Assembly: GCA_902775485.1 (NCBI GenBank)
Contig: CACYMJ010000002.1
Coordinates: 48,031-112,030, forward strand
Direction of reading: 5' to 3'
Source: an uncultured Lachnospiraceae bacterium
Lineage (GTDB): Bacteria; Bacillota; Clostridia; Lachnospirales; Lachnospiraceae
DNA: 64,000 nt
Shown: positions 5,494-60,181 of the stretch, in pieces
Numbering within the stretch: the first letter of the stretch is position 1
Layout: each line of letters begins with the position of its first letter
Made by a program: the position numbers and the translations under genes
Notes under the pieces: generated by a model
Seen by the model: only the letters and a program-made list of their open reading frames with translations
The model's database searches: none
What the model was told of the DNA's origin: nothing

Positions 5494-5521
5494 AAGAGAC
5501 TCCGTTTTCCCGGAATCTCCA
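5494..5521 (-). terminator. intrinsic terminator after the nitroreductase gene
   Basis: On the minus strand: ggagattccgggaaaacggagtctc hairpin followed by tttttt. Confidence 0.6.
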
Positions 5522-5549
5522 TAAAAATAGTGCTTGCTTGGTTACCTTT

Positions 5550-6176
5550 TCAGTATTTATCCCAATGAATCCTGGTTTTGATATCGATACTCTTCTGTCT
5601 GGGAACCGGTGCATTTTCCCGGGGTATCCCAATCCCTATAAAACAAGGCATAAAATAGTCTTCCGGAAATCCCAGCACCTTACGTGCATGCTCATCTTCA
5701 TTTCCGAGGGGGATGCGAAGATTACACCCGTATCCCTCGGCTACAGCAGCCAGAAATATGTTTTCGATACTGCACCATATCGATGCAAATCCGTTAAGGT
5801 GCGAGATGTTCTCCGGATGAAGCAGATCGGTCTTTTGTTTCAGGAGCGGAACAATGATAGCAGATGCATCAAAAAGCATTCTATACTGTTTAGGTACCGC
5901 ATTACGATAACATTCCTGCTGAACACTGTCAGAAAGGTTCCAATCCCTTATCAGCTGATCCATATCTTCATCAGATATTCCCTTTGGAACTATATCAAGC
6001 AATTTGGCTGCAACTTCCCGGTCCTTAACAACAATGTAGTGCCAGTCCCTCATATGATCGTTGGTAGGGGCCTTCATCGCAGCCGATATGATCCTTTCAA
6101 TCACATTTTCGGGAATATCTCCCGGCTCAAAATCCCGGATGGTTCTTCTCTTTTCTATAGTTTCGTAAAAGTACAT
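5550..6176 (-). CDS. nitroreductase family protein
   Basis: MYFYETIEKRRTIRDF... is a typical nitroreductase N-terminus. I chose the internal Met (6176) to avoid overlap with the upstream gene; the ORF track start is 6218. Confidence 0.8.
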   Translation of the reverse strand: MYFYETIEKRRTIRDFEPGDIPENVIERIISAAMKAPTNDHMRDWHYIVVKDREVAAKLLDIVPKGISDEDMDQLIRDWNLSDSVQQECYRNAVPKQYRMLFDASAIIVPLLKQKTDLLHPENISHLNGFASIWCSIENIFLAAVAEGYGCNLRIPLGNEDEHARKVLGFPEDYFMPCFIGIGIPRENAPVPRQKSIDIKTRIHWDKY

Positions 6177-6187
6177 CTGCTTCTCCC

Positions 6188-6628
6188 CTACTCTATCAGT
6201 CCGCCATGAAAGAGGCATTCGTAAACCTGCACATCTTTAAAACTTATGGTCTCTTTTCCCCAAAACCACTCAACATCGCCTTCTACATCGCAGTCATATC
6301 TGTAGTCTCCGGAAACATACTGTTTCGGGCCACGGAACGGTTTGTCCTCGGGCACATGCAAAAGCGCCTCTTTCAGAAAATCCCCGCTGAAATCGCCACC
6401 GGTAACCCTCCCGACGTAATTCATGCTCCAATAAGGTTCCTTTGATATCCATAAAGCTTCTTCTCCGGCAAACTTACTACCACCAAGGTAAGTATCATAA
6501 TACATAAGATCTCCGTCCTCAAAGATGAGATCATGTGATTTTTCCCGCGAAGATGTAGTCTCTGCGCCTTTTCCTGCATACGTAGCCTGTTTAGCTTTGA
6601 TCAGGAATGCAATGATGTTCTTATCCAA
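6188..6628 (-). CDS. conserved hypothetical protein (DUF5680-like)
   Basis: 146-aa ORF; AFLIKAKQATYAGKG...YYDTYLGG pattern recalled from the DUF5680 family. Confidence 0.55.
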   Translation of the reverse strand: MDKNIIAFLIKAKQATYAGKGAETTSSREKSHDLIFEDGDLMYYDTYLGGSKFAGEEALWISKEPYWSMNYVGRVTGGDFSGDFLKEALLHVPEDKPFRGPKQYVSGDYRYDCDVEGDVEWFWGKETISFKDVQVYECLFHGGLIE

Positions 6629-6663
6629 GTGTATTCTCCTTATGAAATGTGTCCATTCGGCAA

Positions 6664-6695
6664 AAAAAGAGACCCCTTTCTTTTGGAATCTCCAT
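6664..6695 (-). terminator. intrinsic terminator just beyond the outermost tRNA-Pro 3'-end remnant
   Basis: On the minus strand: ggagattccaaaagaaaggggtctc hairpin followed by ttttttt. Likely the original tRNA-Pro terminator displaced by the insertions. Confidence 0.5.
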
Positions 6696-6698
6696 CAA

Positions 6699-6721
6699 TC
6701 GGAGGGACAGGATTCGAACCT
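6699..6721 (-). repeat. degenerate copy of the tRNA-Pro 3' end (outer att-like remnant)
   Basis: tcggAggGgacaggattcgaacct versus tcggggtgacaggattcgaacct at 18277-18299: 21/23 identical, same orientation. Confidence 0.7.
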
Positions 6722-6780
6722 TAAACCTCACATCGTTCAAATCCAGTAAAGAAAGGGGATTCGAGCATCCTTTCCCTGGA

Positions 6781-6804
6781 ATCTTAACCAATATCTTAAC
6801 CAAG
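6781..6804. repeat. tandem direct repeat atcttaaccaAT/atcttaaccaAG
   Basis: Read directly. It begins exactly 59 nt inside the att-like remnant, the same spacing as the repeat at 9951-9972. Confidence 0.8.
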
Positions 6805-6919
6805 TTTCCTATCGTAATCCAAATGCATCTTCAACTATGTTATATAGATACTCTTTCTTGGAGAAATCGCTCCCATCAGAAAAATAAGCGTTGAACGCAA
6901 CAAGTGCCGTTCGGAGATA

Positions 6920-7432
6920 TCAGGCATTCTTTTCAAAACGATCCCTGTTAACCGGATATCCCATTTCATCAATATACTGACAACAGGAAGTAATAGCCGT
7001 CCTTGTATTCCCCTCCCTGAATGGATGTACCTTCCAAATACCAGCCAGACAATCCGAAAACTTATGTGCACGAGAGATAGGGGACATACTATCCCAATCA
7101 CTTGTTCTCATGATTTTAAGTGAACGACTCAGATCATTTACTATATCAAAAGGATCTGCATATTCGATGGACATTCCTCCAAGGACATCTTCCTCCTTAT
7201 ATATGGATATTGTCCTTATCGATCCAGCCCACTCATACAGATCCTGAAATATGACTTCATGCATTTTAAGAAAATGCGGTGTATGATAATCCCCTTTCAG
7301 TGGATTCAATGCGATATCTTTTAATCTAAGGGATACATAATCTGCTTCTGCGCCCTCAAGTAAGTCTTGATTTCGAATATCAAGTTTATTCTTAAGAACA
7401 TCTGAACCTTCATACAGATACGGATCACGCAT
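6920..7432 (-). CDS. fic: Fic/DOC family protein (toxin of a VbhA-Fic pair)
   Basis: Fic motif region HPFREGNTRTA (variant of HPFxxGNGRxxR). 170 aa. Start overlaps the stop of the upstream antitoxin gene. Confidence 0.8.
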   Translation of the reverse strand: MRDPYLYEGSDVLKNKLDIRNQDLLEGAEADYVSLRLKDIALNPLKGDYHTPHFLKMHEVIFQDLYEWAGSIRTISIYKEEDVLGGMSIEYADPFDIVNDLSRSLKIMRTSDWDSMSPISRAHKFSDCLAGIWKVHPFREGNTRTAITSCCQYIDEMGYPVNRDRFEKNA

Positions 7433-7601
7433 TCACGGTCTCCTTCATCTTGTATTTTTTGTCAAGATATCTCTTGGCATCCTCAAAGGTTATTTCGCCT
7501 CTTTTTTCTTTCTCAATATACTCTTTGAAATCTTCAGTAGGTTCCAGCCCATCTACTTTGATCAATCCGATAGCATAGTCCCAAGCCTGTGAATTCGTCA
7601 T
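7425..7601 (-). CDS. vbhA: VbhA-family antitoxin (Fic inhibitor)
   Basis: Own translation (below the ORF-track size cut-off): MTNSQAWDYAIGLIKVDGLEPTEDFKEYIEKEKRGEITFEDAKRYLDKKYKMKETVNA, 58 aa. The VDGLEP..E segment matches the inhibitory (S/T)xxxE(G/N)-type helix. Overlaps the fic start by 8 nt. Confidence 0.7.
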   Translation of the reverse strand: MTNSQAWDYAIGLIKVDGLEPTEDFKEYIEKEKRGEITFEDAKRYLDKKYKMKETVNA

Positions 7602-7696
7602 ACAAAAACCTCCATAATTACTTTATACTCATAATATTATTCTAACATGCACATACCAAATATCAATATAGTGATTATAGGTTATATCCTATTCAA

Positions 7697-7905
7697 TTTT
7701 CACCCCGGGCATCCGTAATATGTCCTGTAATGGTTTCTTAAAAACATTGCAGGACGCAGGCCACGCTTCCACGAAGTGGATTTTAAATGGCGTGGCTCTC
7801 CCGTGGACAAGAAACCGGATACCCTGAATGAACAAAACCTGCCGGAAGCACATTTTCGGCAGGTTCCTTGATTTTACCGGCCAGACCTATACTCGGGGGT
7901 GAAAA
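7697..7905. other. hairpin-rich non-coding element closed by a 10-bp inverted repeat (candidate structured RNA or MITE)
   Basis: ttttcacccc (7697-7706) pairs with ggggtgaaaa (7896-7905). A stacked second helix pairs gggcatccg (7707-7715) with cggataccc (7816-7824). Three internal hairpins. No ORF of 60 aa or more. Confidence 0.3.
7838..7863 (-). terminator. intrinsic terminator of the SEDS-like gene
   Basis: On the minus strand: cctgccgaaaatgtgcttccggcagg followed by ttttgtt. Confidence 0.55.
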
Positions 7906-7950
7906 TCATAAGCATAAATCAATTCAACCGTAGTTCCTACGTCTTCCCTG

Positions 7951-9351
7951 CTATGTAGCTATCTCTTGATTCTTGCCATTGTGGATATTCTTCGGGGCGT
8001 AATCTCTTCGTATATCCTTATATCTGTAGATCGACAAGACCATACCGATCATCGCATAATCAACGATACCGTAGGAAATACTGCTGGTAAAAATCGGAAG
8101 AGTCGAGCCTGTCATCGGAAGCAGACCAAATACGATCAGGATATTGCTGATGCTCTGAAGAGCCACAACGATACCGCAGGCACACCCTGTTATGTAGCCC
8201 AGGTTATTCTTTTGTCTTGCGGAAATGATTATCATATATGTGGCAAGAGCAAGCATGCATATTATTATGCCTGCAACCATGGCCAGGCCGCATATGGCAG
8301 CCATCGATCCCATCACAAGATCAGCCCAATAGCCCGGAATATCAGACATTATTCTGACCGCTTCATCACTTTTTCCTATGATAGCGCTATGTGTAAATAC
8401 CTTGCCCAGTTGTGCATTTATATAGTTAACCCCGGTATCATCTGTAATGTCGCTTCCTATTCCAAGATTGGATAGCCAGTTCGCAAATCTGGCACTCTGA
8501 TATGTGTTCAATCTGAGTATAAAGGCCGTACCAGCCATGATGAGCGTAGCAAAGACAGCCGAAAATCCGCCGTACACGATCTTTTTGTCAATATTATACC
8601 AGTTTTTATGAACGGCTATAAATATCAAAACTGTTTCTGCAAGCAGGATAAACAGCGCAGACGGTATCGAAAGATTCCCTGTGAAGAAGGGCGATATAAC
8701 CGGCAATATCATCCAAAATACAATCCGTGCCATAACCCATCTGCCTTTACCACGAAGTTCATATAAAATACCGGCAAATACAGGAATGTAGAGCATCATC
8801 AACGCACGAAGCGAAAATGACGCAAATCCTATACGGATCAATCCACTGCTGCCGTTGATCCTGATTCCAAAGGCAATCCCAACCAATGTGACAATCGCCA
8901 TGAAAATCCCTCCGATCAGCCTGCTGCGGCCCAGTAGGACAGTATAGTCAATACGATATACCAAAAACATCGCAATGATTCCGGCCATGATACCAATGAT
9001 ATGTCTTCTGGTAATATCAAGAAAAGCATTTCCCGTTATCGATCGCGAATCCATGTTTACTGCAATAAGATATTGGATCACTATACTCAATATACTGATA
9101 AACATTATGAAAATCAGATAACGCCATTCCATATGAGGTCTGTGTATACGATCCAGGTCCGCTCCTACGCTCACCGGATCCCCCATTTCCTCAACAGCTT
9201 TTAATAAAGCCTCTTCACGGTCCATTCCGGTTTGCCGATACGCATCGGCCTGCTCCTCGATATGCGCGGATATCTCATCAGAAACAAGTATCCTCGCGCT
9301 CTTATCACGGATCTGTCCCTTAAGCGCACCCATGTATTCTTCCAAACTCAT
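7951..9351 (-). CDS. divergent FtsW/RodA/SpoVE (SEDS)-like membrane protein with a PadR-associated N-terminal prefix domain
   Basis: The N-terminus MSLEEYMGALKGQIRDK...EEMGDPVSVGADL is typical of genes following padR. About 10 TM helices. C-terminal LPMTGSTLPIFTSSISYG resembles the SEDS P.TG..LPF.SYGGS motif. Confidence 0.65.
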   Translation of the reverse strand: MSLEEYMGALKGQIRDKSARILVSDEISAHIEEQADAYRQTGMDREEALLKAVEEMGDPVSVGADLDRIHRPHMEWRYLIFIMFISILSIVIQYLIAVNMDSRSITGNAFLDITRRHIIGIMAGIIAMFLVYRIDYTVLLGRSRLIGGIFMAIVTLVGIAFGIRINGSSGLIRIGFASFSLRALMMLYIPVFAGILYELRGKGRWVMARIVFWMILPVISPFFTGNLSIPSALFILLAETVLIFIAVHKNWYNIDKKIVYGGFSAVFATLIMAGTAFILRLNTYQSARFANWLSNLGIGSDITDDTGVNYINAQLGKVFTHSAIIGKSDEAVRIMSDIPGYWADLVMGSMAAICGLAMVAGIIICMLALATYMIIISARQKNNLGYITGCACGIVVALQSISNILIVFGLLPMTGSTLPIFTSSISYGIVDYAMIGMVLSIYRYKDIRRDYAPKNIHNGKNQEIAT

Positions 9352-9363
9352 GATATATCCCCC

Positions 9364-9705
9364 TTAATAAGAAATGGCCAGCACACCGGCAACTGCCCCT
9401 GTAAACGTTTCCCACTCACTAAGCTTTGCCTTCAGATATTTCCTTCCGGCATTTGTTATGGAGTAGTACTTGCGTGTTTTTCCAACCCCATCCTGCTCAT
9501 ATGATGTCAGGTAGTTTTTTGACTCCAGTGTATGAAGAAGCGGATATAATGTACCGGCTTTGAGTTCAAAAACATTCTGTGAGCGCGACCTGAGAGTCTC
9601 GATCATCTCATACCCGTACATATCCTTTTCATCCTTTTCCGAAAGAAGCTTTAACAGCATCGTTCCCATGCTTCCGGACAACAGCGTTTTATCTATATTA
9701 CTCAT
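9364..9705 (-). CDS. PadR family transcriptional regulator
   Basis: 113 aa. MYGYEMIETLRSRSQNVFELKAGTLYPLLHTLESKNYL is the canonical PadR winged helix. Confidence 0.85.
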   Translation of the reverse strand: MSNIDKTLLSGSMGTMLLKLLSEKDEKDMYGYEMIETLRSRSQNVFELKAGTLYPLLHTLESKNYLTSYEQDGVGKTRKYYSITNAGRKYLKAKLSEWETFTGAVAGVLAISY

Positions 9706-9726
9706 ACAGCCTCCTTTATATCGAAT

Positions 9727-9740
9727 ATCTATATATAGAT
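9727..9740. promoter_or_regulatory. perfect 14-bp palindrome atctatatatagat upstream of padR (possible operator)
   Basis: Read directly. It lies 22 nt upstream of the padR start codon. Confidence 0.3.
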
Positions 9741-9871
9741 AATCTATATACTATATCGATATTCTATACTAGTCAAGACTATTTCTCTCCCAATAATGAA
9801 TACTCATTTTACGCAAAACAAAAAGAACCATTATCACTGAAAAAATCAACGAAAAACAGTTCTTTTCTTCA

Positions 9872-18431: not shown

Positions 18432-18917
18432 TCACTGCCCGACATATCGTATCTCAAATACCGGCTTTTTCCCCGTCTCGGCATTTCCCACTATATAGGT
18501 CGGTACTCTTCCATGCTGTCTTGGGTAAGTAAGTGATCCCGGGTTTATAAGCGTAACCGGACCTTCCTCGTGGATCACGGGAACATGCGTATGTCCGAAG
18601 AAAACATAATCGGCCCGGTTTTCAGCCGCAAGATAAAACAGCGGATCATATCCGTGATAGAGCTGATAACGGTGACCGTGAGTAAGGACCGCTCTGTGAC
18701 CACTGAATTCTATGACCTTGATCCTCTCCATATCGGAGTCGTAATCATTGTTGCCTGCAACCACGTGCAGACTGCAGTCGATCCTGTCACGCAGGCGATC
18801 GTATTCCCCCTCGATATCACCGCAGTGTATCAGCATATCAAACGGTGACTCTTTTGCGATAACTTCGTACATTATATCATTGTAACCGTGTGTATCACTA
18901 ACTATCAGTATCTTCAT
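18432..18917 (-). CDS. yfcE: YfcE/MJ0936-family metallophosphoesterase
   Basis: MKILIVSDTHG…CGDIEG…GNNDY…GHTH motifs. Confidence 0.85.
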   Translation of the reverse strand: MKILIVSDTHGYNDIMYEVIAKESPFDMLIHCGDIEGEYDRLRDRIDCSLHVVAGNNDYDSDMERIKVIEFSGHRAVLTHGHRYQLYHGYDPLFYLAAENRADYVFFGHTHVPVIHEEGPVTLINPGSLTYPRQHGRVPTYIVGNAETGKKPVFEIRYVGQ

Positions 18918-18938
18918 CCGTTGTAATGTTTGATCCCC

Positions 18939-19544
18939 TTATTTCTTCCGGGTATAATCTTCACGCATGAGAATGTCTCTCATCATTCTCAGTGCCTTGC
19001 CCCTGTGGGATATCGCATTTTTTTCCTCTCGTGAGAGCTCCGCGGAAGTGCATCCTCTTTCCGGAAGGTAGAAGATAGGATCGTATCCGAATCCGTTCTC
19101 GCCCGCTATCTTATGCGCCACTATCCCCTCCATCGTTGCCCTTACCGTCTCGCTCGATCCATCCGGACGAACATAGCAGATCGCACAGACAAAACGCGCA
19201 GTACGTTTCTCATCCGGTACCGACTCCATGCGTCGCAGCAATTCAGCGTTTTTTACCGGATACGGGGTGTCCTCACCCATGTATCTTGAAGAATAGATTC
19301 CCGGCTCTTTCCCGAGATAATCTATCTCAAGGCCCGAATCATCCGCAAGAGTCGGCAGGCCGCTTTTTCTTGCTATAGCGCTTGCTTTCAGATACGCGTT
19401 TTCCTCGAACGTTTTTCCGGTCTCTTCCACATCAGTGTATACTCCGGCATCTTTCATGGATACGATCTCTATATCCATATCGGCCGTGATCTCACGTATC
19501 TCCCGGAGCTTATTCTCATTCCCGGTGGCAAATATTATCTTCAT
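18939..19544 (-). CDS. rdgB: XTP/dITP diphosphatase (RdgB/HAM1)
   Basis: MKIIFATGNENKLREI…DDSGLEIDYL…FGYDPIF. The ATG at 19544 has an aggag RBS. Confidence 0.9.
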   Translation of the reverse strand: MKIIFATGNENKLREIREITADMDIEIVSMKDAGVYTDVEETGKTFEENAYLKASAIARKSGLPTLADDSGLEIDYLGKEPGIYSSRYMGEDTPYPVKNAELLRRMESVPDEKRTARFVCAICYVRPDGSSETVRATMEGIVAHKIAGENGFGYDPIFYLPERGCTSAELSREEKNAISHRGKALRMMRDILMREDYTRKK

Positions 19545-49056: not shown

Positions 49057-50193
49057 TTATACCCCGAACAATTCCGCGAGCGCATCCTCGTCTATCTTTG
49101 AGCCGATAACGCAGAGCCTTCCGGTGTAATCCGCCGAACCCTCACGTATTTCGGACTCTCCCGGTGTCATATCAAAGTGCAGCCATCTGCCGTCCGTTGA
49201 AGGAACTATACCCTTGGCACGCAGCACCTGTCCGAACTGTCCGAAATCAGCCAGTTTGTCAAGCATGGCTTTAAGCTCGTCTTTATCAAATTTCTTCGGC
49301 GTTTCAACACCCCAGCTTGTAAACACCTCATCAGCATCATGATCGTGATGGTGGTGATGATCGTGGCCGCAGCAACCATGCTCGTGGTCATGGTCGTGGT
49401 CGTGATGATGTTCATGCTCATCGTGATCATGGTCGTGATGATGTTCATGCTCGTGGTCGTGGTCATGGTCATGATCGTGGTGCTCATGGTCGTGTTCATC
49501 TTCATCATGGTGATGGTGCCCGCACGAACATACGCCGTTCTCATCATAATGGTGCTCGTGATGGTGGTGCTCATGTTCAAGTTCATGCTCAAGCGCCTTT
49601 GCATCGCTCATGGCCCCGAAGATCACCTTGCCGTCAATATCATCCCACGGCGTTGTGATAAGCGCCGCTTCATGATTTTTATCTCTTACAAGCTTAACAA
49701 CTTCTTCAAGTTTTTCATCCGTAACATCCTGCGTACGCGAGAGCACGATACACCTGGCTGTTTCTATCTGGTTATTGAAAAACTCACCGAAGTTTTTCAT
49801 ATATACCTTTGCCTTCTTGGCATCCACAACAGCAGTTGTCGTTGCGATCTCAAGTCCGGCATCTGCTGCAACATCGAGAACCGCCCTTTCAACATCCGAC
49901 AGTTTTCCGACACCTGAAGGCTCTATTACGATCCTTGCCGGATGATACTCATCAACGACCTTTTTAAGTGCGGTTGCAAAATCGCCCACCAGCGAGCAGC
50001 ATATGCATCCGCTGTTCATCTCGGTGATGTTTATTCCGGCATCTTTTAAAAATCCTCCGTCAATTCCGATCTCGCCGAATTCATTTTCTATCAGGACTAT
50101 CTGCTGGCCTGCAAACACATCGGCGATCAGCTTTTTTATGAGTGTTGTCTTTCCGGCTCCCAAAAAGCCCGATATTATATCAACTTTTGTCAT
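49057..50193 (-). CDS. COG0523-family metallochaperone GTPase with a very long His/Asp/Glu tract
   Basis: ISGFLGAGKTTLI P-loop, GCICCS (CxCC), about 87 aa of H/D/E-rich sequence, then a CobW_C domain. Confidence 0.85.
   Translation of the reverse strand: MTKVDIISGFLGAGKTTLIKKLIADVFAGQQIVLIENEFGEIGIDGGFLKDAGINITEMNSGCICCSLVGDFATALKKVVDEYHPARIVIEPSGVGKLSDVERAVLDVAADAGLEIATTTAVVDAKKAKVYMKNFGEFFNNQIETARCIVLSRTQDVTDEKLEEVVKLVRDKNHEAALITTPWDDIDGKVIFGAMSDAKALEHELEHEHHHHEHHYDENGVCSCGHHHHDEDEHDHEHHDHDHDHDHEHEHHHDHDHDEHEHHHDHDHDHEHGCCGHDHHHHHDHDADEVFTSWGVETPKKFDKDELKAMLDKLADFGQFGQVLRAKGIVPSTDGRWLHFDMTPGESEIREGSADYTGRLCVIGSKIDEDALAELFGV
49333..49593 (-). repeat. His/Asp/Glu-rich low-complexity coding tract with an internal in-frame duplication
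   Basis: The 22-nt ggtcgtgatgatgttcatgctc occurs at 49398-49419 and at 49431-49452, 33 nt apart. Confidence 0.9.
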
Positions 50194-51885: not shown

Positions 51886-51951
51886 TTGATTTTAGCGGGT
51901 TCACAGCTTCGTATTTCTTGTGATCAAATCATTAATCATATAGCCATTTTC

Positions 51952-52938
51952 TTAACATCTGTACTTTTCAGCCATTCCTCGGATGTCCTCACATATCTGT
52001 TTCCTCAGTGATTCCGGCTTTAGCACTTCTACAGAAGGACCATATTGCAACGCCCAGTATTCCATGGCATGAATGTTACAACTCAAGCGTACCGTTATCT
52101 CATTTCCCTTTCCCTTTGTTACAGAAAAGTCCGTTCCAAACCAGTCAACTAGATCCGTCATCTTATCATCAGTAGTCTTGATTGTGATCATCTCACTTGG
52201 GCCTCTGAACATATAAATATGCTCAGCCATGTGTTTGGGCAGATCAAATCCCCTTTCATACCCAGAAATAAGCTTAAGCGGCTTTACTCTCTCATTAAGC
52301 ATTTCCACTTCCGTCATCCTGTCAATTCTAAGGTGTGCGATATTGTCATATTTCTCATAGTTTCCAATAAGATAAAATCGACCATTATTGGCAACAATCT
52401 CGTACGGATTAAAAACTGAAGGTTCCTTTTTCTTAGGATGAAGTTTAAAATCCGTCCCAACCTCGTTATACAGGAAACTGATCTTCTTTCGCTCAGAAAT
52501 GGCATCATTGATTGTATCAAGCGCATACATGGCCTGTTTGTTGATTGTACGATTCAAACTCGGGAGGTTCTTAATATGCGAAACCTTTGCAATAAAGAAA
52601 TCGCTGGCAAACTCTTTTAACTTTTCTATTAGTCCCTGTGCCTGCTTGGTCGAGATAGACTTGGAGAACAACACGCTGTCGATCAGAATTCTAAGTTCGG
52701 CATCATCAAACTCGCGGGTAATAAGATAATATCCCTTATCCATTGATATCTCATATCCCAGTTCCACAAGATGTTCAACATTATTCTTAACGGATCTCCT
52801 ATCACATTCCATCCCATAGTTCTGCTTAAGGAGCTTAATGATCTGCTGCTGTGTAAGCGGATGCTTTTCATCAGAGTATTTCCTTAAAACCTCCAGGATA
52901 AGCATATTAAGCATCTTCTTATTTCCGGTAGCGTACAT
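51952..52938 (-). CDS. WYL-domain transcriptional regulator (wHTH + WYL + C-terminal extension)
   Basis: N-terminal wHTH (LNMLILEVLRKYSDEKHPLTQQQI…). WYL core FNPYEIVANNGRFYLIGNYEKYDNIAHLRIDRM. Confidence 0.8.
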   Translation of the reverse strand: MYATGNKKMLNMLILEVLRKYSDEKHPLTQQQIIKLLKQNYGMECDRRSVKNNVEHLVELGYEISMDKGYYLITREFDDAELRILIDSVLFSKSISTKQAQGLIEKLKEFASDFFIAKVSHIKNLPSLNRTINKQAMYALDTINDAISERKKISFLYNEVGTDFKLHPKKKEPSVFNPYEIVANNGRFYLIGNYEKYDNIAHLRIDRMTEVEMLNERVKPLKLISGYERGFDLPKHMAEHIYMFRGPSEMITIKTTDDKMTDLVDWFGTDFSVTKGKGNEITVRLSCNIHAMEYWALQYGPSVEVLKPESLRKQICEDIRGMAEKYRC

Positions 52939-53027
52939 AGTAAATCCTCCCGCAGGTGATGTTCCAATGAATGCACATTATTTTGTACGTCTAAAGTATA
53001 CTAATGATCACATATGATTACAATAGC

Positions 53028-53480
53028 CTAGTCTGTGAACGGTTCTTCCTCCATAGTATTTGGAACCATAGCAAGGATTTCCTCGGGCAACATAGACTTC
53101 AGTTTCTTTTCTGCAATTCCACGGCAGTCACCAAACTGGATGATTAGTGCTCCCTTAAGGTAGATAAGATAGGTCAATCCTTCGTAAGAAGAGAACCCCT
53201 GTGAAAAAAACGATGACCATCCAATATCTTCGACATTTTCATGGTCAGTTCCGTCAAGGACCAGAATGATAAGTTCATATAACCACTTCTCCATTGAATA
53301 CTTATTCAAGTTCACTATTTCGTCTTCAAGTTTCAGAAGACCGTACTCCCTTGCTGCAATGGCGTATTTCATTACCAGTTCACATGCTCCTATAACCTTC
53401 CTCGCTTTTGCCCTGTCGAACTCGTCTGTAGCTATCTCGCCTATCACCCTTTTTAATTCATCGTAAAACAGTCTGTCCAT
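53028..53480 (-). CDS. soluble protein resembling the cytoplasmic domain of MotA stator proteins
   Basis: AAREYGLLKLEDEI…LYELIILVLDGTDHENVEDI parallels MotA ARREGLLALE…GIQLVVDGTDPE..R.ILE. No TM helices. The Met at 53480 has a strong aaggagg RBS. Confidence 0.4.
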   Translation of the reverse strand: MDRLFYDELKRVIGEIATDEFDRAKARKVIGACELVMKYAIAAREYGLLKLEDEIVNLNKYSMEKWLYELIILVLDGTDHENVEDIGWSSFFSQGFSSYEGLTYLIYLKGALIIQFGDCRGIAEKKLKSMLPEEILAMVPNTMEEEPFTD

Positions 53481-53732
53481 ATCTCTTCCTCCTTTCCGGT
53501 ATACCCGTTTCATGGCTTTTATGTGATCTAAATCTATCATGATACGCATCGCAAGAACGTCATTTTGCCGTCGCGGTCACGTGGGAATTATGTGCACTAT
53601 ATTGTACATTTATGTCGCACCTCGCGACACCAAATTGTCGTTTTGCAAAGTCTGAAGATGATACACTCTGCTCACAAGCTCGATCAATTAAATATGGAAC
53701 ATAACAATCACACTTAGAATGGAGGGTTGCAC

Positions 53733-53918
53733 ATGAATATCAGATTAACAGCAAGAGGAATGGCAATGGTGAAAAAAATGAACATGGCATCAGATACACT
53801 TACAGTACAAAGACCGGAATACAGGCAGTTCACCCTGATCAGAATCGACGGTAAAGGTAAGGCAATTTCGAAGAAAAAGGTTATGGTCAACATGAACAGA
53901 TACTTCAAAGTAGCTTGA
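53733..53918 (+). CDS. small basic Met/Lys-rich protein (61 aa)
   Basis: ggaggg RBS 6 nt upstream of the ATG. Immediately followed by a strong terminator. Confidence 0.4.
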   Translation: MNIRLTARGMAMVKKMNMASDTLTVQRPEYRQFTLIRIDGKGKAISKKKVMVNMNRYFKVA

Positions 53919-53919
53919 C

Positions 53920-53946
53920 GAGGGGAGAAAATCCCCTCCTCTTTTT
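53920..53946 (+). terminator. intrinsic terminator or attenuator between the small ORF and the AAA+ operon
   Basis: gagggg-agaaaat-cccctc followed by ctcttttt. Confidence 0.7.
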
Positions 53947-53978
53947 CCCAAAAGCTCACACTTCAAGGAGAATATATC

Positions 53979-54404
53979 ATGAATATCAGACAAATCAACG
54001 GAAAGCATATAAAAGAGATCCTCGATAAGATCGGTCCCAATGATGCAGTTATACGTACAAAAAATGAGTGGGCATTTTCCGTATACTATTCAGAGCGCAG
54101 TGTGAACACCATCACGATAGAGATGTGCCTCAATACCGATTATCAGGGGGATCCTCTCTTTGATCCTTTGATGAGGATAGAACTTGATCTGGATTCTAAC
54201 GGAAATATTACTGAAGCTAAACCGCTTTATTATCTGAGCAGGACTCTTTTCTATACTGAGGAAATCTATTCCGAGGGCAACCCGGCTTGCTATAACCCAA
54301 AGCTTTACAAAAGGTCCAACGAACTGGATTCCCGCCTTTCAGAATGGCTTGAAATGCTTTGGATACAGGGATATATGACCGAAGGCGTAGTCAGCCCGAT
54401 ATGA
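53979..54404 (+). CDS. hypothetical protein, DUF6908-like (family seen on Firmicute conjugative elements)
   Basis: Pattern …EMCLNTDYQGDPLFDPLMRIELD … LSEWLEMLWIQGY, recalled from DUF6908. From memory only. Confidence 0.4.
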   Translation: MNIRQINGKHIKEILDKIGPNDAVIRTKNEWAFSVYYSERSVNTITIEMCLNTDYQGDPLFDPLMRIELDLDSNGNITEAKPLYYLSRTLFYTEEIYSEGNPACYNPKLYKRSNELDSRLSEWLEMLWIQGYMTEGVVSPI

Positions 54405-54426
54405 TTATCAAATGGAGGAAGAAGAT

Positions 54427-56493
54427 ATGGTACTTTGGGAAACGCAGATAGTCTATAAAGACAAAAAAACCAAGAACATAGGCGCAAAACATCTTATGAT
54501 GGATCCTAATGCAAAACAACCGCAACAAGACTGGGACACCATGATCAGGGGGCTTAATAAGCTTTTGGGCAGGAAATGTGACCCGGATGATAAGATGTCT
54601 GTTTACTTCTATGATGGTGTCCCGGAATGCCTCAATGCTGTTATAGCTTATTCCTCAAGGGATGCATCCTTGGAGTACTGTTTTGATTTTATAAAGGAAA
54701 CGCTTGAAAAGAACTACTCGGTACGAAATATCTCCTTCTCCGAATATAAGGAAATATCTGCCAAAAGGCTTGATTTTCTCGGGGATAAGGCTGATGAAAA
54801 CGGTTATATCAGGCGTTGGCATTTTGAAAGGTCCAATCTTGGGATCGATTATTTCTCCAATAGCCACTTCAAAGTCGAGGAATACATGGAAGAAAAAGAC
54901 TATCCCACTCTGGAAGATGCCAAAAAAGCAGGTGACGACATAATGGCCGATGCGACTCTTATCGAAGAACTGGAGCGCATCTACTCCGACCAGAACGAGA
55001 AGAAATACTATGGAAATCCGGTTCATTACAAAATCTGTGCATCCGGCACAAAAGCCGCGATGGACATCGTGGATCTTATGGTTCCAGCGCTCATAGCCAA
55101 TAAAAGGCTTTGTGGAAGACGAATATTGAAGATCCACAATATCGGCGAAGGCTGTTATGACGAAGCGGATTTTGAGCATATGTTCAAATCTGCCCAGGGA
55201 AACACTGTCGTCATCGAGATGTGCGGAACTAACGAAGACCACGGAAACTATGCTAATGCCTATCAACAAGTTGTTGATTATATCGACTATATCATTGATA
55301 AATATCATTTGAACACATTATGTTTCTTTGTTGAGATAAAAGACAAATCTGGCTTTACAGACAGTCTAATTTCCAAGGTAACCGAAAATATCCAGATAAT
55401 CAAAATCAACGAGGGGTATGGAGATAAGAAGCAGGCGAAAACCTATCTTACGAATCTCGCGCAGAAGGAATCCTTTGATATTACCGAAGAAGAACTCGAA
55501 AAGGCCCTCGGAAACAAAAAGATGTTCAGCGTCGAGGAAATCTACCACATTTATGAGAAATGGTTCAAAGACGGGCTTCGCACTCACATTTACAAAGCCT
55601 ATAAAGATTACGGATTCTACTGCGAAGCGCTTAAGGATCGAAGCAGCGCCCCTTATGATGAACTTCAAAAGATGGTTGGTCTCACAGAGATCAAGCAGGT
55701 TATCGACGAGATCATCGACGCCGGAAAAGTACGTAAGATCCGGACCAACATGGGCTTAAACGCAAAAAAATCATCTCTACATATGGTCTTTACCGGCAAT
55801 CCAGGAAGCGCCAAAACGACTGTTGCAAGGCTCATTGCACAGATTCTCCGTAAAGAAGACATAGTCGATGGTGGTAAATTCGTGGAATGTGGTCGAGCCG
55901 ATCTGATCGCCAAGTATGTTGGATGGACAGCCAAAACCGTTCGTTCAAAATTCAGGGAGGCAAAAGGAGGCATCCTGTTTATTGACGAGGCTTATTCACT
56001 CGTTGATGGCAGCAACTCATTTGGCGATGAGGCCATCAATACCATAGTACAGGAAATGGAAAACCACAGAGAAGACGTGATCGTAATATTTGCCGGCTAT
56101 CCTGACAAGATGAAGGATTTCTTGGACAAAAACGAAGGATTGCGAAGCCGCATAGCTTTCCATCTTGATTTTCCTGACTACACTCCGGACGAAATGGTAG
56201 ATATCCTAAAGCTAATGGCTGATCAGCACGGATATAAACTTGAGAAAGCCGCATTTTCAAAGTGCCATGAAATCTTTGAGAGTGCCTGTCGGGAAGATGA
56301 CTTTGGAAATGGTCGTTTTGTCCGTAATCTACTTGAACAAGCTGAGCTGGCCCAGGCGCATCGGATCGCATCCAAAACACGAGGGAACAAGATAAGCAAG
56401 AAATCTCTGGTTACGCTCTCGCCCGAAGATTTTGACGTCAACATCAGCAAGAAGGTAAAAGCTGCTCGTATTCCAATAGGATTTGCTGTGTGA
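54427..56493 (+). CDS. two-domain AAA+ ATPase, SpoVK/CbbX type (degenerate N-terminal module plus active C-terminal module)
   Basis: C-terminal module: VFTGNPGSAKTTVA (Walker A), ILFIDEAYSL (Walker B), IFAGYPDKM, SRIAFHLDFPDYT, GNGRFVRN. The ggagga RBS favours the ATG at 54427. Confidence 0.8.
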   Translation: MVLWETQIVYKDKKTKNIGAKHLMMDPNAKQPQQDWDTMIRGLNKLLGRKCDPDDKMSVYFYDGVPECLNAVIAYSSRDASLEYCFDFIKETLEKNYSVRNISFSEYKEISAKRLDFLGDKADENGYIRRWHFERSNLGIDYFSNSHFKVEEYMEEKDYPTLEDAKKAGDDIMADATLIEELERIYSDQNEKKYYGNPVHYKICASGTKAAMDIVDLMVPALIANKRLCGRRILKIHNIGEGCYDEADFEHMFKSAQGNTVVIEMCGTNEDHGNYANAYQQVVDYIDYIIDKYHLNTLCFFVEIKDKSGFTDSLISKVTENIQIIKINEGYGDKKQAKTYLTNLAQKESFDITEEELEKALGNKKMFSVEEIYHIYEKWFKDGLRTHIYKAYKDYGFYCEALKDRSSAPYDELQKMVGLTEIKQVIDEIIDAGKVRKIRTNMGLNAKKSSLHMVFTGNPGSAKTTVARLIAQILRKEDIVDGGKFVECGRADLIAKYVGWTAKTVRSKFREAKGGILFIDEAYSLVDGSNSFGDEAINTIVQEMENHREDVIVIFAGYPDKMKDFLDKNEGLRSRIAFHLDFPDYTPDEMVDILKLMADQHGYKLEKAAFSKCHEIFESACREDDFGNGRFVRNLLEQAELAQAHRIASKTRGNKISKKSLVTLSPEDFDVNISKKVKAARIPIGFAV

Positions 56494-56505
56494 TAGTATA
56501 TTGTT

Positions 56506-57126
56506 ATGACTAAAATGGCGCGGCAATTAAACATATATGCTCAGGTAAGCGAAGTACCTGCCCTCGAAGAGATCTCTTTCGGCGTCATCATCGGTCCAAA
56601 AGAGATTATGAGGGAGTTTGGCATTTCCCAGCGTATGCTCCAGCGTGACCTTAGGGATCTTCGCGATTGCGGTCTGATCAACGTAAAGTATAACAAGGCA
56701 CGAGATATGTATATCCGTCTCGAGACCTCTGCCTTAGATGAGACTGCTGAAGGGCGTCACTTCCAGCACCTGCGGCGCCTTTATCGACTCGGAACACTGA
56801 TATCCAAGTTATCTCGCGTATATCAGAGTGAAATCGACCGCTATGAGTCTCTGGTCCAGGAACTGAACGACTACATCGAATTCTCACAAGAAGATCCCGA
56901 GACATTCCCCCTGGAGGATATAAACGAAATGCGTGAAAGCGCAGAATCCGAATATCCCTATTTCCCCAATCTTAAATCAGAATACTACACGCTCTTTCCA
57001 GACAGTAATGAAAGAACCCGGCAACGCGACTTCAAAGAACTCCGCGATGCCGGATTCGATATTGATTATAATAAGAAATATAAAGCTTATGTCTATTTGA
57101 TTAATGAAAGTTCTATGAGCCGTTAA
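56506..57126 (+). CDS. hypothetical protein with two DeoR/YafY-like wHTH-type segments
   Basis: ISQRMLQRDLRDLRDCGLINV and ERTRQRDFKELRDAGFDIDY both resemble the recognition helix and wing of YafY-type HTH_11. Confidence 0.4.
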   Translation: MTKMARQLNIYAQVSEVPALEEISFGVIIGPKEIMREFGISQRMLQRDLRDLRDCGLINVKYNKARDMYIRLETSALDETAEGRHFQHLRRLYRLGTLISKLSRVYQSEIDRYESLVQELNDYIEFSQEDPETFPLEDINEMRESAESEYPYFPNLKSEYYTLFPDSNERTRQRDFKELRDAGFDIDYNKKYKAYVYLINESSMSR

Positions 57127-58502
57127 CTTTTCAGTCTGATTCTCTGTTTTATCTCATCCTTGATCGGCAGATTCATAAACTCCTCTTTTTTCTCAGTATG
57201 CATCGGGTAAAGGGCATCCTGCGGATTGATTGCGTTTATTACACTTGCCAGCATTTTCGGTGTTGCATGACCGCTTGTATGCAAGTCATATTCGATCTCC
57301 ACTCCTTTTGCTTTCTGTCGTTCGACGAAATCAAACCACTCCTTTTTGAATGCTTTATGTTTGGGATTTAAGTACCCATTCCACATAGAGAATATTAAAA
57401 CTGGCATCTGTTTAATCCTATTAGCTTTATAGGCTTCAACAAATGCGTCAATGTAGTGTTCATGATAATCCTCAGGCTTTATCACGGCAATAAAACCATA
57501 ATCTTCCATCATCTCCTGCTGTGTTTTAGGATTATCCCAATTTGGATGTGAGTAAGTTTTGGTCGAATCTGCGTCGAACTGATATACATTATCAAACTTG
57601 TAAACAGATGCAAATGATCCGGCCGTGTCTGTGTAGAGTTTCAACTGTTTGATAAAATAGTAGCTATAGACATACATATTTCTGCCGTATGGATGACCAG
57701 CATCCTGAGCCGCCTGATAAAAGCTTGCGAGTGAATCAACATTTGTTGACGAGCATATAAGAAATGCATATTTATGTTTCATAAGATACTTTGTAGCCTT
57801 TAGCTGCATCTGAGGTTCTGAAATAACTCTCTCTCGTGAGCGACTCATCATTGTTCCTTCGATCACAAGCGCATCGATGCTTCGTTTATTGAACCTCCTA
57901 ATATACTTCTTGATCAAGGTCAGCATCACATTTCCGCGTCTTCCATGTCCACGGAAATCTCCCGTATGAACGACTTTGTATTTCCCGGATTTCGTATTGG
58001 GATCACAAACCTCAAAAAGAAACAGGTAAGCATCATAAGCAGAATGATCCACGCTATATGGTTCAACAACAAAGCCCTCTATATCTTTTACATGATCATA
58101 AAATATTCCATTCCAGTTAAACGTCTTTACCCTTTTATCATCATTTAGCACGGCCGCCTCCTCCAGGTGCAATTGTGCCTCTTCCTTAGGTATATACGGA
58201 TTCTTTCCCAAGGCTTCTTGGATGTTGATCATTGCCTGGCGAGCCACATCGCCCATGTATAATGGAATATGAGACGGGATTTCCATCAACCTTCCCACAT
58301 GATCGCCATGATAATGTGTAAAAAAGACCGCATCCACTGGTTCATCATCCCATGGGTAATCGAAGTCTTTTTCATTATCACTTCCGGGCAGGGATGACCC
58401 ATAATCAACCATGATCCGGTGTATCTCACCGTTAATCATGCTTGAAATAACCGTAACACATCCGCCTATTTGATTACCCTGATATATCTTTACATGTTCC
58501 AT
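57123..58502 (-). CDS. MBL-fold beta-CASP-like (RNase J/Cft2-type) nuclease
   Basis: FFTHYHGDHVG (HxHxDH), VVHTGDFRGHG, C-terminal LHTSGHAT…LYPMHTE. Confidence 0.75.
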   Translation of the reverse strand: MEHVKIYQGNQIGGCVTVISSMINGEIHRIMVDYGSSLPGSDNEKDFDYPWDDEPVDAVFFTHYHGDHVGRLMEIPSHIPLYMGDVARQAMINIQEALGKNPYIPKEEAQLHLEEAAVLNDDKRVKTFNWNGIFYDHVKDIEGFVVEPYSVDHSAYDAYLFLFEVCDPNTKSGKYKVVHTGDFRGHGRRGNVMLTLIKKYIRRFNKRSIDALVIEGTMMSRSRERVISEPQMQLKATKYLMKHKYAFLICSSTNVDSLASFYQAAQDAGHPYGRNMYVYSYYFIKQLKLYTDTAGSFASVYKFDNVYQFDADSTKTYSHPNWDNPKTQQEMMEDYGFIAVIKPEDYHEHYIDAFVEAYKANRIKQMPVLIFSMWNGYLNPKHKAFKKEWFDFVERQKAKGVEIEYDLHTSGHATPKMLASVINAINPQDALYPMHTEKKEEFMNLPIKDEIKQRIRLKS

Positions 58503-58525
58503 CGAACTTCCCCTATAGTTTTTTC

Positions 58526-59683
58526 CTATCGTAATATCTGTACGATATTATACGCACCTTCTTTTGTAGGGAAACCCGCCAACGTTTTGTCCCGCCACTT
58601 CTTTCCGTTTTCAGTTTCAATATACTCTCTTGCCGAATCAGTATAAACCAAGACTATCTCCTGGTTGCCGAATAATTCTAGTTTTGATAAATCAGCTTCG
58701 CACATATCCTTTGACACGCCCCTCAATCCCAACTTGTTGTATAAGGTAAGAATATCTTGCGCCTCTTTCAATCGCAATTTCATATAATCAAGATGCTTTG
58801 TAATGTATTTGTCCATATTGATCATATGCGCCCTCAAGCCGCTTCCATCTTCTTCGCTGTCCGTCATGGAATCTTTTATTGATTTAATTTCAACAAAGGC
58901 TAACTTTATAGGTTTTCCCTTATCATCATATCTAATGGCCAAACAATCAGTTTGATTGGCTTTGTTTATCCCCATATATCGAAAATCAGTTTTCTTCTCG
59001 GTATCATTTCCGTATTCATGTTGAAACTCCATATCATATACAAAATATCCGCCACAAAAGCTTCTATTATTCAGATAGTATTCCTGTTGTCTTTTCTTCT
59101 CAACTAAATTCCTTTTCCCTTCAATATATATCTTATGTATTCTGTCATAGGCTTTAATTGCTTTTCGGTTTTCGAAAAAATCCCATTTCTTATCAACATT
59201 AAAAAAATCGTTAATCATTCCAATCAGTTTGTGAATAGTTTTCTTGGCATAATCCTCAGGCAATTTATCAGCCGAACGAGAGAATTTGTCTATTTTTATG
59301 ACCTTTTTCTCTTCTTTCAATTTCTTTTCTCTTTCTTCCAACTTGTTTCTGTCCATTCCAATAGAGCTAAGAATGCCGATCCAATTATCAGAGTATCTTG
59401 CATGATTTGCGCTTATAGATACTTTGGGTCCCCTCTTATTTATACTCAAATCCCAAACAATATGATTATTATAATAAATCGTAACAGAATCTTGATTCGA
59501 TCTAAAACAAAGCATTAATTCAGGAATCGAATCATCACTTTCCGATTTCTTTACCAAATCAACAAACTGCTTAAACGCGCCCTCTGTCAAGTGGTAATAC
59601 ATGGATTTCTTATATTCTTCTCCTGTTTTTTGGGCATCACTTTCCGGATACCATATTGCACGATTATTTAATTCTCTTCCCAT
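58526..59683 (-). CDS. PD-(D/E)xK nuclease-like protein, Shedu/DUF4263-like core in the C-terminal half
   Basis: …NQTDCLAIRYDDKGKPIKLAFVEIKS… has the D…ExK arrangement. The N-terminal 200 aa carry no recognisable motif. Confidence 0.4.
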   Translation of the reverse strand: MGRELNNRAIWYPESDAQKTGEEYKKSMYYHLTEGAFKQFVDLVKKSESDDSIPELMLCFRSNQDSVTIYYNNHIVWDLSINKRGPKVSISANHARYSDNWIGILSSIGMDRNKLEEREKKLKEEKKVIKIDKFSRSADKLPEDYAKKTIHKLIGMINDFFNVDKKWDFFENRKAIKAYDRIHKIYIEGKRNLVEKKRQQEYYLNNRSFCGGYFVYDMEFQHEYGNDTEKKTDFRYMGINKANQTDCLAIRYDDKGKPIKLAFVEIKSIKDSMTDSEEDGSGLRAHMINMDKYITKHLDYMKLRLKEAQDILTLYNKLGLRGVSKDMCEADLSKLELFGNQEIVLVYTDSAREYIETENGKKWRDKTLAGFPTKEGAYNIVQILR

Positions 59684-59947
59684 AGCAACTTCTAAAGCCT
59701 CCTTTTACATAATCAAGTGAATTATCCTACTTATTCATAAAAAGATTCCGAGCACTTAATAAATTAGATATACACAGGTAAAAATCTTCTTTAAAGGCAA
59801 CCTTTTCAGAGTCTTAATATTTTAACATATTCTATCATTCCGTATATTTAGCTACAAGCACTACAGTATGGGCTTAAATGACCTTTTTTTGCGAATATAT
59901 AGTGTATTTTTCTGAGCAGTCACATTCCCTACCATTTGTGCGTACAT

Positions 59948-59969
59948 TTTTACCCCAGATTTTACCCCA
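59948..59969. repeat. tandem direct repeat ttttacccca (x2, 2-nt spacer)
   Basis: Read directly, about 125 nt inside repeat copy B. Confidence 0.8.
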
Positions 59970-60017
59970 AATTTTTAAATTTAGACAGCTTTTGACAACA
60001 ACAGTCAAAAAGCAAAA

Positions 60018-60054
60018 AACCCTGCGATGCCTTATTTTACAGCATCACAGGGTT
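60018..60054 (-). terminator. 13-bp hairpin with a U-run on the minus strand
   Basis: aaccctgcgatgc / gcatcacagggtt (one mismatch). On the minus strand it is followed by ttttttgc. Confidence 0.5.
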
Positions 60055-60094
60055 TGACAGCATCTGACAGGTTACACACTTTTATCCTCAAGCG

Positions 60095-60130
60095 TGAGTG
60101 CTAACAAAAATTGTGAAAACTTTATGAACC
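60095..60130. repeat. 36-nt direct repeat, copy B
   Basis: tgagtgctaacaaaaattgtgaaaactttatgaacc. Carries only the right CIRCE half-site. Confidence 0.9.
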
Positions 60131-60181
60131 CCGCATTTTCCCGGTATCCCGTCCATGTTTCACTACAAATGAACTGCGAAG

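Follow-up and report, generated by a model that had tools for sequence, protein, structure and literature searches.

Nucleases of the PD-(D/E)xK fold and of the metallo-beta-lactamase (MBL) fold both serve in described bacterial immune systems. Shedu is an anti-phage nuclease, and a two-component form of it, KELShedu, has been reported in which the partner is a 12.6-kDa DNA-binding protein (10.1101/2025.09.13.674623). In SduA and KELShedu an N-terminal sensing/assembly domain is followed by a C-terminal PD-(D/E)xK domain with a D...ExK arrangement, and Shedu is characterised by a homotetramer in which the N-terminal domains control access to DNA ends. In Hachiman the defence-type PD-(D/E)xK nuclease HamA (DUF1837) is encoded next door to its partner, the HamB helicase. 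On the MBL side, Cas14 is the guide-dependent beta-CASP RNase effector of type VII CRISPR-Cas (PMC12669027), and it was the only beta-CASP nuclease that our literature search found described as an immune effector. MBL pro-nucleases resembling DNA-uptake (ComEC) nucleases are paired in HamMAB, Avs, Lamassu and Canu with fused proteases of the trypsin-like or caspase type, which open and so activate them (PMC12799240). Here we describe a combination of the two folds in a 64,000-nucleotide (nt) stretch of DNA from an uncultured Lachnospiraceae bacterium (the window): gene A, predicted to encode a PD-(D/E)xK nuclease, followed by a gene for a beta-CASP MBL nuclease (Table 1). With modest confidence, we favour the view that this A-MBL pair is the core of a conserved, mobile two-nuclease conflict module (anti-phage or anti-plasmid), associated with WYL-domain regulators and built on an A-MBL complex. 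A preliminary description of the pair could name no known system, and indeed no curated defence (PADLOC run), Pfam or NCBIfam model covered it; nor did we find any account of it in a literature search combining beta-CASP, MBL and WYL with defence, outside which much subscription literature lay.

Both open reading frames (ORFs) were confirmed on the strand and with the coordinates and lengths first reported, 23 nt apart. They are not chance ORFs, because both have homologues, those of A sharing 88, 69, 67 and 39% identity with it and those of the MBL numbering more than 1,600 in a word-indexed search. Since the spacer between them holds a ribosome-binding site and lacks a terminator, A and MBL are predicted to form one operon, and the MBL stop codon overlaps by 4 nt that of a convergent helix-turn-helix (HTH) gene. 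Seen from the A side, an MBL gene adjoined A in 9 out of 10 independent contexts, whichever of the two came first, the exception being L020 (L numbers designate the loci compared). The layout of the window, with MBL directly downstream of A, recurred in L001-4 and L011; A also came first in L017, L018 and L022, and MBL in L021 and L015, while in L007 the order was reversed with a 4-nt overlap and in L005 (Oribacterium sp. P6A1) an HTH gene lay between the two. A metagenome scan with the A-family alignment gave no confirmed match, and loci were obtained with the MBL alignment. On the MBL side we sampled the best 80 of 562 metagenome matches to two peptide patterns (29-74% identity), so that the co-occurrence percentages are rough. 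An A-family gene was adjacent in 18 of the 38 well-flanked MBL loci (at least 1.2 kb on either side), counting a divergent subgroup, A*, linked to A by hhalign with 94% probability; when 31 non-A MBL-neighbour clusters were compared with the A profile by the same method, A* was the only further homologous cluster. Among 31 non-redundant co-directional pairs the gap was 30 nt or less in 28 and the genes overlapped in 21, with A first in 21 and MBL first in 10. Moreover, at least 8 representative clusters were single fusions of about 800 amino acids (aa), N-terminal MBL and C-terminal A, carrying the MBL Pfam domains, and both active-site sets were kept in 9 candidate MBL-A fusions, one of which (P0129) was found on several independent contigs. 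The adjacency persisted across 25-35% sequence identity.

Conservation of the neighbourhood, on which the preliminary description had made its proposal depend, is thus evident from both sides and from the fusions. Since the genes stay adjacent whichever comes first, are translationally coupled and are naturally fused in places, the A and MBL products are very likely physical and functional partners, acting as one complex. That the genes are chance neighbours without a joint function is scarcely credible: more than half of the MBL homologues had no detectable A-family neighbour and the A-family gene of L020 had no MBL nearby, but the adjacency is kept at 25-35% identity, in both orders and with overlapping frames, independent fusions retain both active sites, and the recurrence of P0129 speaks against an assembly or frameshift artefact. 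A classical toxin-antitoxin pair was likewise rejected, as natural fusions keep both active sites. Two loci held additional A-family genes. In L029 a single MBL gene lies between two A-family paralogues (3-719 and 2168-3310), and L018 contains another A-family ORF, shortened to about 200 aa (9161-9775; hidden Markov model E 1e-8 to 1e-15), just after a WYL gene and about 4.5 kb from the main A-MBL pair.

The motifs quoted in the preliminary description are present in the translations, NQTDCLAIRYDDKGKPIKLAFVEIKS in A (residues 243-268, which hold the D...ExK) and THYHGDHVG, HTGDFRGH, HTSGHA and PMHTE in the MBL protein, and the assignment of the latter to the beta-CASP enzymes held good. Pfam matched it to Lactamase_B (8.9e-8) and weakly to RMMBL. 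In an alignment of 37 diverse homologues (30-91% identity), as well as in the 9 fusions, MBL motifs 1-4 (D33, H63xH65xD67H68, H153 and D182) and beta-CASP motifs A (E215), B (H408/H412) and C (H435, a histidine) were invariant. The family profile, searched against PDB, matched best the uncharacterised EF2904 of E. faecalis (2az4, 4.7e-24), followed by RNase J (2e-14), INTS11 (9e-11), CPSF73 (1.6e-7) and then TTHA0252; no SNM1/Artemis-type DNA enzyme was found at E ≤ 0.01. By these motifs and matches, the window MBL classifies as a beta-CASP nuclease of the EF2904/RNase J-like branch with complete catalytic motifs. It shares with EF2904, RNase J, CPSF73/INTS11 and TTHA0252 the full set of MBL and beta-CASP motifs, including the histidine at motif C, but differs from the RNase J/CPSF73-type enzymes in being accessory and island-borne and scores far under the RNase J and aCPSF1 cut-offs; for none of these proteins do we know of an obligatory PD-(D/E)xK partner or fusion. 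Histidine at motif C reportedly marks the RNA-processing branch and valine the DNA branch, a distinction said to go back to Callebaut et al. 2002. Because motif C is a histidine here, the substrate may be RNA or single-stranded DNA (ssDNA).

The NCBIfam models matching the window MBL were those of Cas14, RNase J and aCPSF1 only, all far under cut-off. The Cas14 model came first but very weakly, with 22 bits against a cut-off of 800, and the RNase J models TIGR00649 and NF047419 gave 21.6 bits against 400 and 16 against 820, respectively. As the scores were 20-fold or more under the curated cut-offs, the protein is an orthologue of neither RNase J nor Cas14. These scores, together with the accessory distribution, led us to reject a housekeeping RNase J paralogue. 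Type VII CRISPR was rejected on the Cas14 score and because Pfam and PADLOC found no Cas5, Cas7, Cas10-like domain or CRISPR RNA guide in the island proteins, no scan of the window for CRISPR arrays having been made; in contrast to Cas14, whose architecture is unrelated, any targeting by A-MBL would be protein-based. HamMAB resembles the present locus in placing an MBL-fold nuclease directly beside a PD-(D/E)xK-containing defence protein (HamA), with which it is functionally coupled, and in its modular acquisition. A HamM-type pro-nuclease was nevertheless discarded, since Pfam found no protease domain in A or any other island protein and the window MBL is of the beta-CASP type. PADLOC returned no match to the window MBL at E ≤ 0.1, and its generic LmuA MBL model (PDLC03854) weakly matched 21 of the 37 relatives (best 4.5e-8) and not the window protein. 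Lamassu was excluded on the former result and because the island has no SMC-type gene (LmuB is an SMC ATPase). Some relatives also gave faint Apyc1-type Pfam matches, and a contig scan with the single window protein yielded 3 close loci; a 100% match to RUG14904 placed the window in a rumen Lachnospiraceae metagenome-assembled genome.

Protein A, in turn, fell under no family's sequence definition. Single-sequence searches of Pfam, NCBIfam, PADLOC, PHROGs and PDB gave no real match, the lone NCBIfam match being a spurious low-complexity one to a mycoplasma family. When 1.84 billion cluster representatives were searched exhaustively with a profile, 346 representative clusters were recovered at E ≤ 1e-3 and 163 at E ≤ 1e-30, almost all metagenomic and nearly all from uncultured anaerobes; this result overturned a reading of the pair as very rare, drawn from word-indexed searches with A that had returned 7 and then 16 relatives. 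Among 100 diverse members Pfam found no consistent family, but single weak matches to TnsA_N, VRR_NUC and the FokI cleavage domain, and DUF1837 matched none of them. In a conservation alignment of 162 members, one per 50%-identity cluster, R61, Y70, E195, Q199, D217, E219, D246, E265, K267, H286 and R304 were essentially invariant. The AlphaFold (AF2) model of full-length A had a predicted local distance difference test score (pLDDT) of 85 and a predicted template-modelling score (pTM) of 0.86, with a pLDDT of 88.6 for residues 190-385. In the model the C-terminal half follows an alpha-beta-beta-beta-alpha-beta order (helices H193-205 and H283-296; strands E213-218, E247-252, E258-267 and E341-347), D246 opening beta2 and E265-x-K267 lying on beta3.

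Foldseek with the full-length model found nothing at E ≤ 0.001 in PDB and BFVD, the top ranks being mostly irrelevant ABC-transporter and MutS proteins. With the model of the C-terminal domain, by contrast with those ranks, the top matches in PDB were all PD-(D/E)xK nucleases, most of them immune effectors and each individually weak: HamA (PDB 8vx9; E 9.7e-3, probability 0.93, TM 0.43 over 203 columns), BstEII (0.03), the SPARDA nuclease (0.13), Card1 (0.16) and SduA (0.26). On the modelled core, the invariant D...ExK and these matches, a PD-(D/E)xK fold for the C-terminal half, as proposed from the letters alone, is well supported. By its residues A would be a catalytically complete enzyme with a family-specific N-terminal domain, closest in fold to HamA, then to generic restriction enzymes and SduA. 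The likeness to HamA, its best structural match, would extend to dependence on an obligatory partner whose gene is adjacent, but A has no DUF1837 match and an N-terminal domain of its own (about 190 aa), no helicase gene is present in the island, and its partner is a beta-CASP nuclease, joined in some loci by an AAA+ ATPase, instead of HamB. The N-terminal half (about residues 1-190), which the preliminary description had called unrecognisable, is a conserved alpha/beta domain, confidently folded in the model and containing the invariant R61 and Y70; Foldseek found no convincing relative of it, giving low-confidence resemblances to YjbR/DUF419/DUF1801-like proteins that were not used for assignment.

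These comparisons bear on the label first given to A, that of a Shedu/DUF4263-like protein, and on the suggestion that the locus is a new Shedu subtype with a recruited accessory beta-CASP nuclease, which we consider very improbable. A shares with SduA the layout of an N-terminal non-catalytic domain and a C-terminal PD-(D/E)xK domain, SduA structures are among its weak fold matches, and a two-component Shedu exists (10.1101/2025.09.13.674623), which dates the earlier statement that Shedu is strictly a single-gene system. However, PF14082 (DUF4263) matched neither the window A at E ≤ 0.1 nor any of the 100 members at E ≤ 0.01, and the A-family profile found nothing by sequence in PDB, no SduA chain appearing even at E ≤ 10. 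SduA ranks fifth in Foldseek, behind HamA and BstEII; against 8ps5_A the domain model gave E 0.26, probability 0.28 and TM 0.34, and the full-length model E 0.7. The KELShedu partner is a small DNA-binding protein, whereas that of A is a second nuclease. Finally, MBL is the more widespread element and A one of several partners, so that describing the locus as Shedu with an accessory inverts the hierarchy. Neither the label nor the subtype is therefore warranted.

The preliminary description was right in presenting an undescribed pair of nucleases, but its limitation to two genes did not stand: in this cassette the unit is probably larger, because a WYL regulator and a convergent s141-AAA+-HTH operon co-travel with MBL. 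The WYL protein matched Pfam WYL (5.4e-12) and WCX (6.7e-7) and PADLOC WYL (1.6e-29), the two domains lying behind an N-terminal HTH as the wHTH-WYL-WCX (winged HTH) definition has it. A WYL gene is found directly upstream of MBL in L007, L015, L021, L025, L038, L039 and L040. In L084 it immediately precedes the A-MBL pair, in L091 it lies two genes upstream of MBL, and L017, L018 and L092 have it near MBL; of the 38 well-flanked loci, 7 had one no more than 7 kb away. BrxR/CapW-type loci are alike in this regulator, which sits at the cassette edge here and directly upstream of MBL in many relatives, but beta-CASP and A-family cargo was not among the cargoes described for them in the literature that our search found. 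The AAA+ protein matched TIGR02881 (1.2e-81, under cut-off), AAA and AAA_lid_6 (Pfam) and phrog_4339 (8e-38); its C-terminal module is SpoVK/CbbX/EccA-like and its N-terminal region of about 400 aa is unassigned. Its gene recurred near MBL homologues in several arrangements (L012, L017, L018, L026, L038, L054, L057 and L058), and an HTH gene accompanied MBL in 10 of the 38 loci and also in L005, L012, L024 and L026. The 141-aa ORF (s141) is kept beside MBL or the AAA+ gene in L001, L011, L012, L013, L026 and L027, and the whole s141-AAA+-HTH operon (53979-57126, plus strand) recurs with MBL homologues, including ones with non-A partners. The 173-aa ORF is kept only in the closest cassettes (L001, L002 and L011), and whether it belongs to the system is uncertain.

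Table 1 Features of the A-MBL cassette and its surroundings in the window
Feature	Coordinates	Strand	Size and description	Basis or remark
A	58526..59683	-	385 aa	ORF list
MBL	57123..58502	-	459 aa; beta-CASP metallo-beta-lactamase nuclease	ORF list, Pfam, profile
A-MBL spacer	58503..58525	-	23 nt; GGGGAAG ribosome-binding site	without terminator
Non-coding region 5' of A	59684..60181	-	498 nt, AT-rich	up to next gene
Cassette	51924..60133		8,210 bp, low-GC; holds A, MBL and accessory genes	inserted beside hsp20
wHTH-WYL-WCX transcription factor	51952..52938	-	328 aa	candidate cassette regulator
173-aa ORF	53028..53549	-	173 aa; function unknown	within cassette
141-aa ORF (s141)	53979..54404	+	141 aa; function unknown	heads AAA+ operon
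AAA+ ATPase	54412..56493	+	693 aa	probable accessory component
Winged-helix HTH protein (HTH_11/ArsR-like)	56506..57126	+	206 aa	ends convergent operon; probable accessory regulator

Partner swapping was most apparent in L012, where the WYL, AAA+ and HTH genes are 86-87% identical to those of the window, yet no A gene is present. A 365-aa protein with a weak NERD (PD-(D/E)xK-like) signature is encoded instead, at the opposite flank of MBL, both in this locus (2598-3695) and in L024 (125-1222); with an hhalign probability of only 18-20%, these proteins were not counted as A-family members. Further non-A partners of MBL were metallophosphatases, an ADP-ribosylglycohydrolase, an FGE-sulfatase-like protein and unknown proteins of 300-390 aa. 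Because MBL has more than 1,600 homologues and other partners replace A, MBL appears to be the more widespread, constant element and A the commonest of several interchangeable partners.

The genomic settings of the pair point towards a role in conflict. In L001 the low-GC cassette that holds it has a toxin-antitoxin pair and the remnant of an integrase next to it, and elsewhere the neighbours of the module include GmrSD/DUF262 genes, McrC and, on a Rhizobium plasmid, restriction-modification (RM) methylases with a GIY-YIG enzyme. The 121 neighbours of 24 non-redundant metagenomic pairs comprised five tyrosine integrases and several PDC candidate families, and PADLOC recognised among them TmtA (7e-273), DrmA (3e-170), UzuA (3e-89) and a type I methyltransferase (2.5e-127). 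A phage contig, L022 (= L114), which encodes a capsid, a lambda-type portal, a gpA-type terminase, a ParB-methylase and a DnaB-like helicase, holds a cassette of HAD hydrolase, 176-aa protein, A and MBL genes (5111-8754) that is inserted between portal and terminase and reads from the other strand, in what seems a moron-like position. A was adjacent in 4 of the 9 IMG/VR contigs with MBL.

Several observations weigh against a conflict module. The association with defence is guilt by neighbourhood, its counts coming without a background control and being suggestive only, and neither A nor MBL of the window matches any PADLOC 2.0 model. Searches by tblastn of A and MBL against 50,697 isolate phage genomes gave no match. 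Every fold match of A is weak (best E about 0.01, TM 0.43), and the substrate of the beta-CASP enzyme may be either RNA or DNA. Furthermore, the 800-aa MBL-A fusion of L106 (8001-10403, on a 137-kb contig) stands alone amid housekeeping genes (ruvX, ireB, ham1, peptide deformylase and NUDIX) with no WYL, HTH or AAA+ gene nearby, Butyrivibrio-type replicons embed the module among DnaX, PolC, DnaA/Hda and mini DNA polymerase III alpha (PolIII-alpha) genes, and WYL regulators also govern DNA-damage regulons; the last two facts would fit a role in repair or replication.

The last three points are the substance of an alternative in which the module serves repair in the host or replicon, the WYL protein sensing ssDNA and inducing a PD-(D/E)xK endonuclease and a beta-CASP 5'-3' exonuclease in the manner of SNM1/Artemis. 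We hold this to be unlikely, albeit the most substantial of the competing explanations. WYL factors, PafBC, DriD and SiwR among them, govern damage regulons, some beta-CASP enzymes are nucleases of DNA repair, several loci add a DnaB_C/KaiC-like ATPase to the replication genes named above, and one fusion gene has ruvX and ham1 for neighbours. A repair function agrees poorly, however, with an A family that is rare and patchy (346 clusters in 1.84 billion representatives, almost all metagenomic), with low-GC cassettes bearing integrase and toxin-antitoxin remnants next to RM, GmrSD, DISARM and Uzume genes, and with a position in the phage between portal and terminase and not in the replication module. 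Conflict systems typically exchange partners as these near-identical cassettes do, and the histidine at motif C and the PDB relatives place MBL on the RNA branch, not with SNM1/Artemis.

The same mobile settings raise another explanation, that the pair serves the mobile elements themselves, as recombination or replication-initiation nucleases, in plasmid or prophage exclusion or addiction, or as an anti-defence nuclease directed at host immune signals or RNAs. The module does occur on plasmids, on predicted viral contigs and in integrative cassettes, its AAA+ partner matches a phage protein family, and the faint Apyc1-type matches of some relatives would agree with anti-defence. We nonetheless judge this explanation improbable. 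The pair is absent from the isolate phages searched, A found no match by tblastn in 72,556 plasmids, and in the phage contig the pair is not among the replication genes. The complete beta-CASP insertion together with the RMMBL signature indicates a polynucleotide nuclease instead of an Apyc1-like cyclic-nucleotide phosphodiesterase, and WYL regulation beside host defence genes fits host-side immunity better.

Returning to the conflict module, whose putative defensive function we read from genomic context alone, the following course of action can be envisaged. As CapW and BrxR suggest by analogy, repression of the operon by the WYL and HTH proteins would last until infection or DNA damage yields a ligand, for example ssDNA. 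The N-terminal domain of A would then select a nucleic-acid or DNA feature, and A would cut, leaving 5'-phosphate ends, as PD-(D/E)xK enzymes typically do. Since a 5'-monophosphate end is preferred by beta-CASP exonucleases, RNase J and SNM1A for instance, MBL could degrade processively 5'->3' from the ends made by A; alternatively, because the histidine at motif C is an RNA-type signature, it might attack transcripts instead. The SpoVK-like AAA+ protein and its 141-aa partner would be optional accessory factors for sensing or remodelling, which the AAA+ protein may couple to activation.

What is new here is how known superfamilies are combined, with a new partner family, into an accessory module that is based on nucleases and associated with WYL regulators, and we regard A-MBL as a well-founded candidate worth cloning, one among many candidate defence modules. 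Should the pair restrict phages or plasmids, it would provide a new protein family, A, present in no curated database, a clear case of partner swapping round a fixed effector and, as far as our literature search showed, the first guide-independent use of a beta-CASP enzyme in immunity. Somewhat more speculatively, MBL-A could be the founding example of a widespread class of immune systems in which a constant non-CRISPR beta-CASP effector is combined with sensor-nuclease partners that can replace one another, such as the A family and NERD-like proteins, switched on by WYL regulators and joined in some lineages by a SpoVK-like AAA+ protein; we put this forward tentatively, with rather less than even confidence. 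If it holds, beta-CASP enzymes would have entered immunity by two routes, that of type VII CRISPR and another that needs no guide. New biology would likewise follow if the module proved to be a repair function, controlled by WYL proteins, of large Lachnospiraceae replicons, and whatever the role, the MBL-A fusions and overlapping genes offer a direct biochemical handle on the cooperation between a PD-(D/E)xK cutter and a 5'-end-dependent exonuclease.

The extent of the cassette was delimited by comparison with its closest relatives. An island of 8.2 kb with a WYL regulator had been proposed, and window positions 51924-60133 did align to metagenome contig L001 as a single blastn block with 95.6% identity (90.3% for the cassette against L011). 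In L001 the block runs on into three small ORFs, a PhdYeFM/ParE pair and an integrase fragment, and then reaches the same hsp20 flank. The GC content was 32-38% over 58.5-60 kb against about 46-49% in the flanks, and 32-33% in the non-coding stretch 5' of A. This stretch, described earlier as AT-rich and about 410 nt long, measures 498 nt from A to the next gene, and since a terminator hairpin of about 40 nt (about 60014-60053) belonging to the upstream gene, for a 503-aa membrane protein, takes up part of it, the effective leader measures about 330 nt. It is nearly identical in L001 and contains an AGGAGG ribosome-binding site as well as tandem GGGGTAAAA repeats (about 59947-59972) that might serve as an operator. 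A search of the island, leader included, against Rfam matched no family, and a promoter scan of the leader gave matches no commoner than in shuffled sequence.

A 142-nt piece of the leader (window 59948-60089), which takes in the terminator hairpin and the GGGGTAAAA repeats, has two copies in L001, in direct orientation and with 80% identity. The copies (18851-18982 and about 9596-9737) bracket the cassette plus about 1.1 kb; they may be repeats marking the cassette ends, or else an operator or promoter put to use again. Mini PolIII-alpha genes of 409-480 aa, whose only domains are DNA_pol3_alpha and the finger domain, PHP and OB being absent, recur just downstream of WYL-MBL-A modules, at L007 12946-14175, L015 10552-11985, L009, L039 (an ORF of about 410 aa) and L104 10805-12247, none being present in the window. 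They are often accompanied by genes for a DnaB_C/KaiC-like ATPase of 175-240 aa and a 420-aa FtsH-like AAA+/M41 protein, and may mark a larger conserved cluster. Outside the cassette, window positions 49057-50193 (minus strand) encode what was recognised by eye, from the translation, as a CobW/G3E-type GTPase-like protein; it has a tract, unusually long at about 110 aa, in which His, Asp and Glu abound, presumably a metal-binding metallochaperone region.

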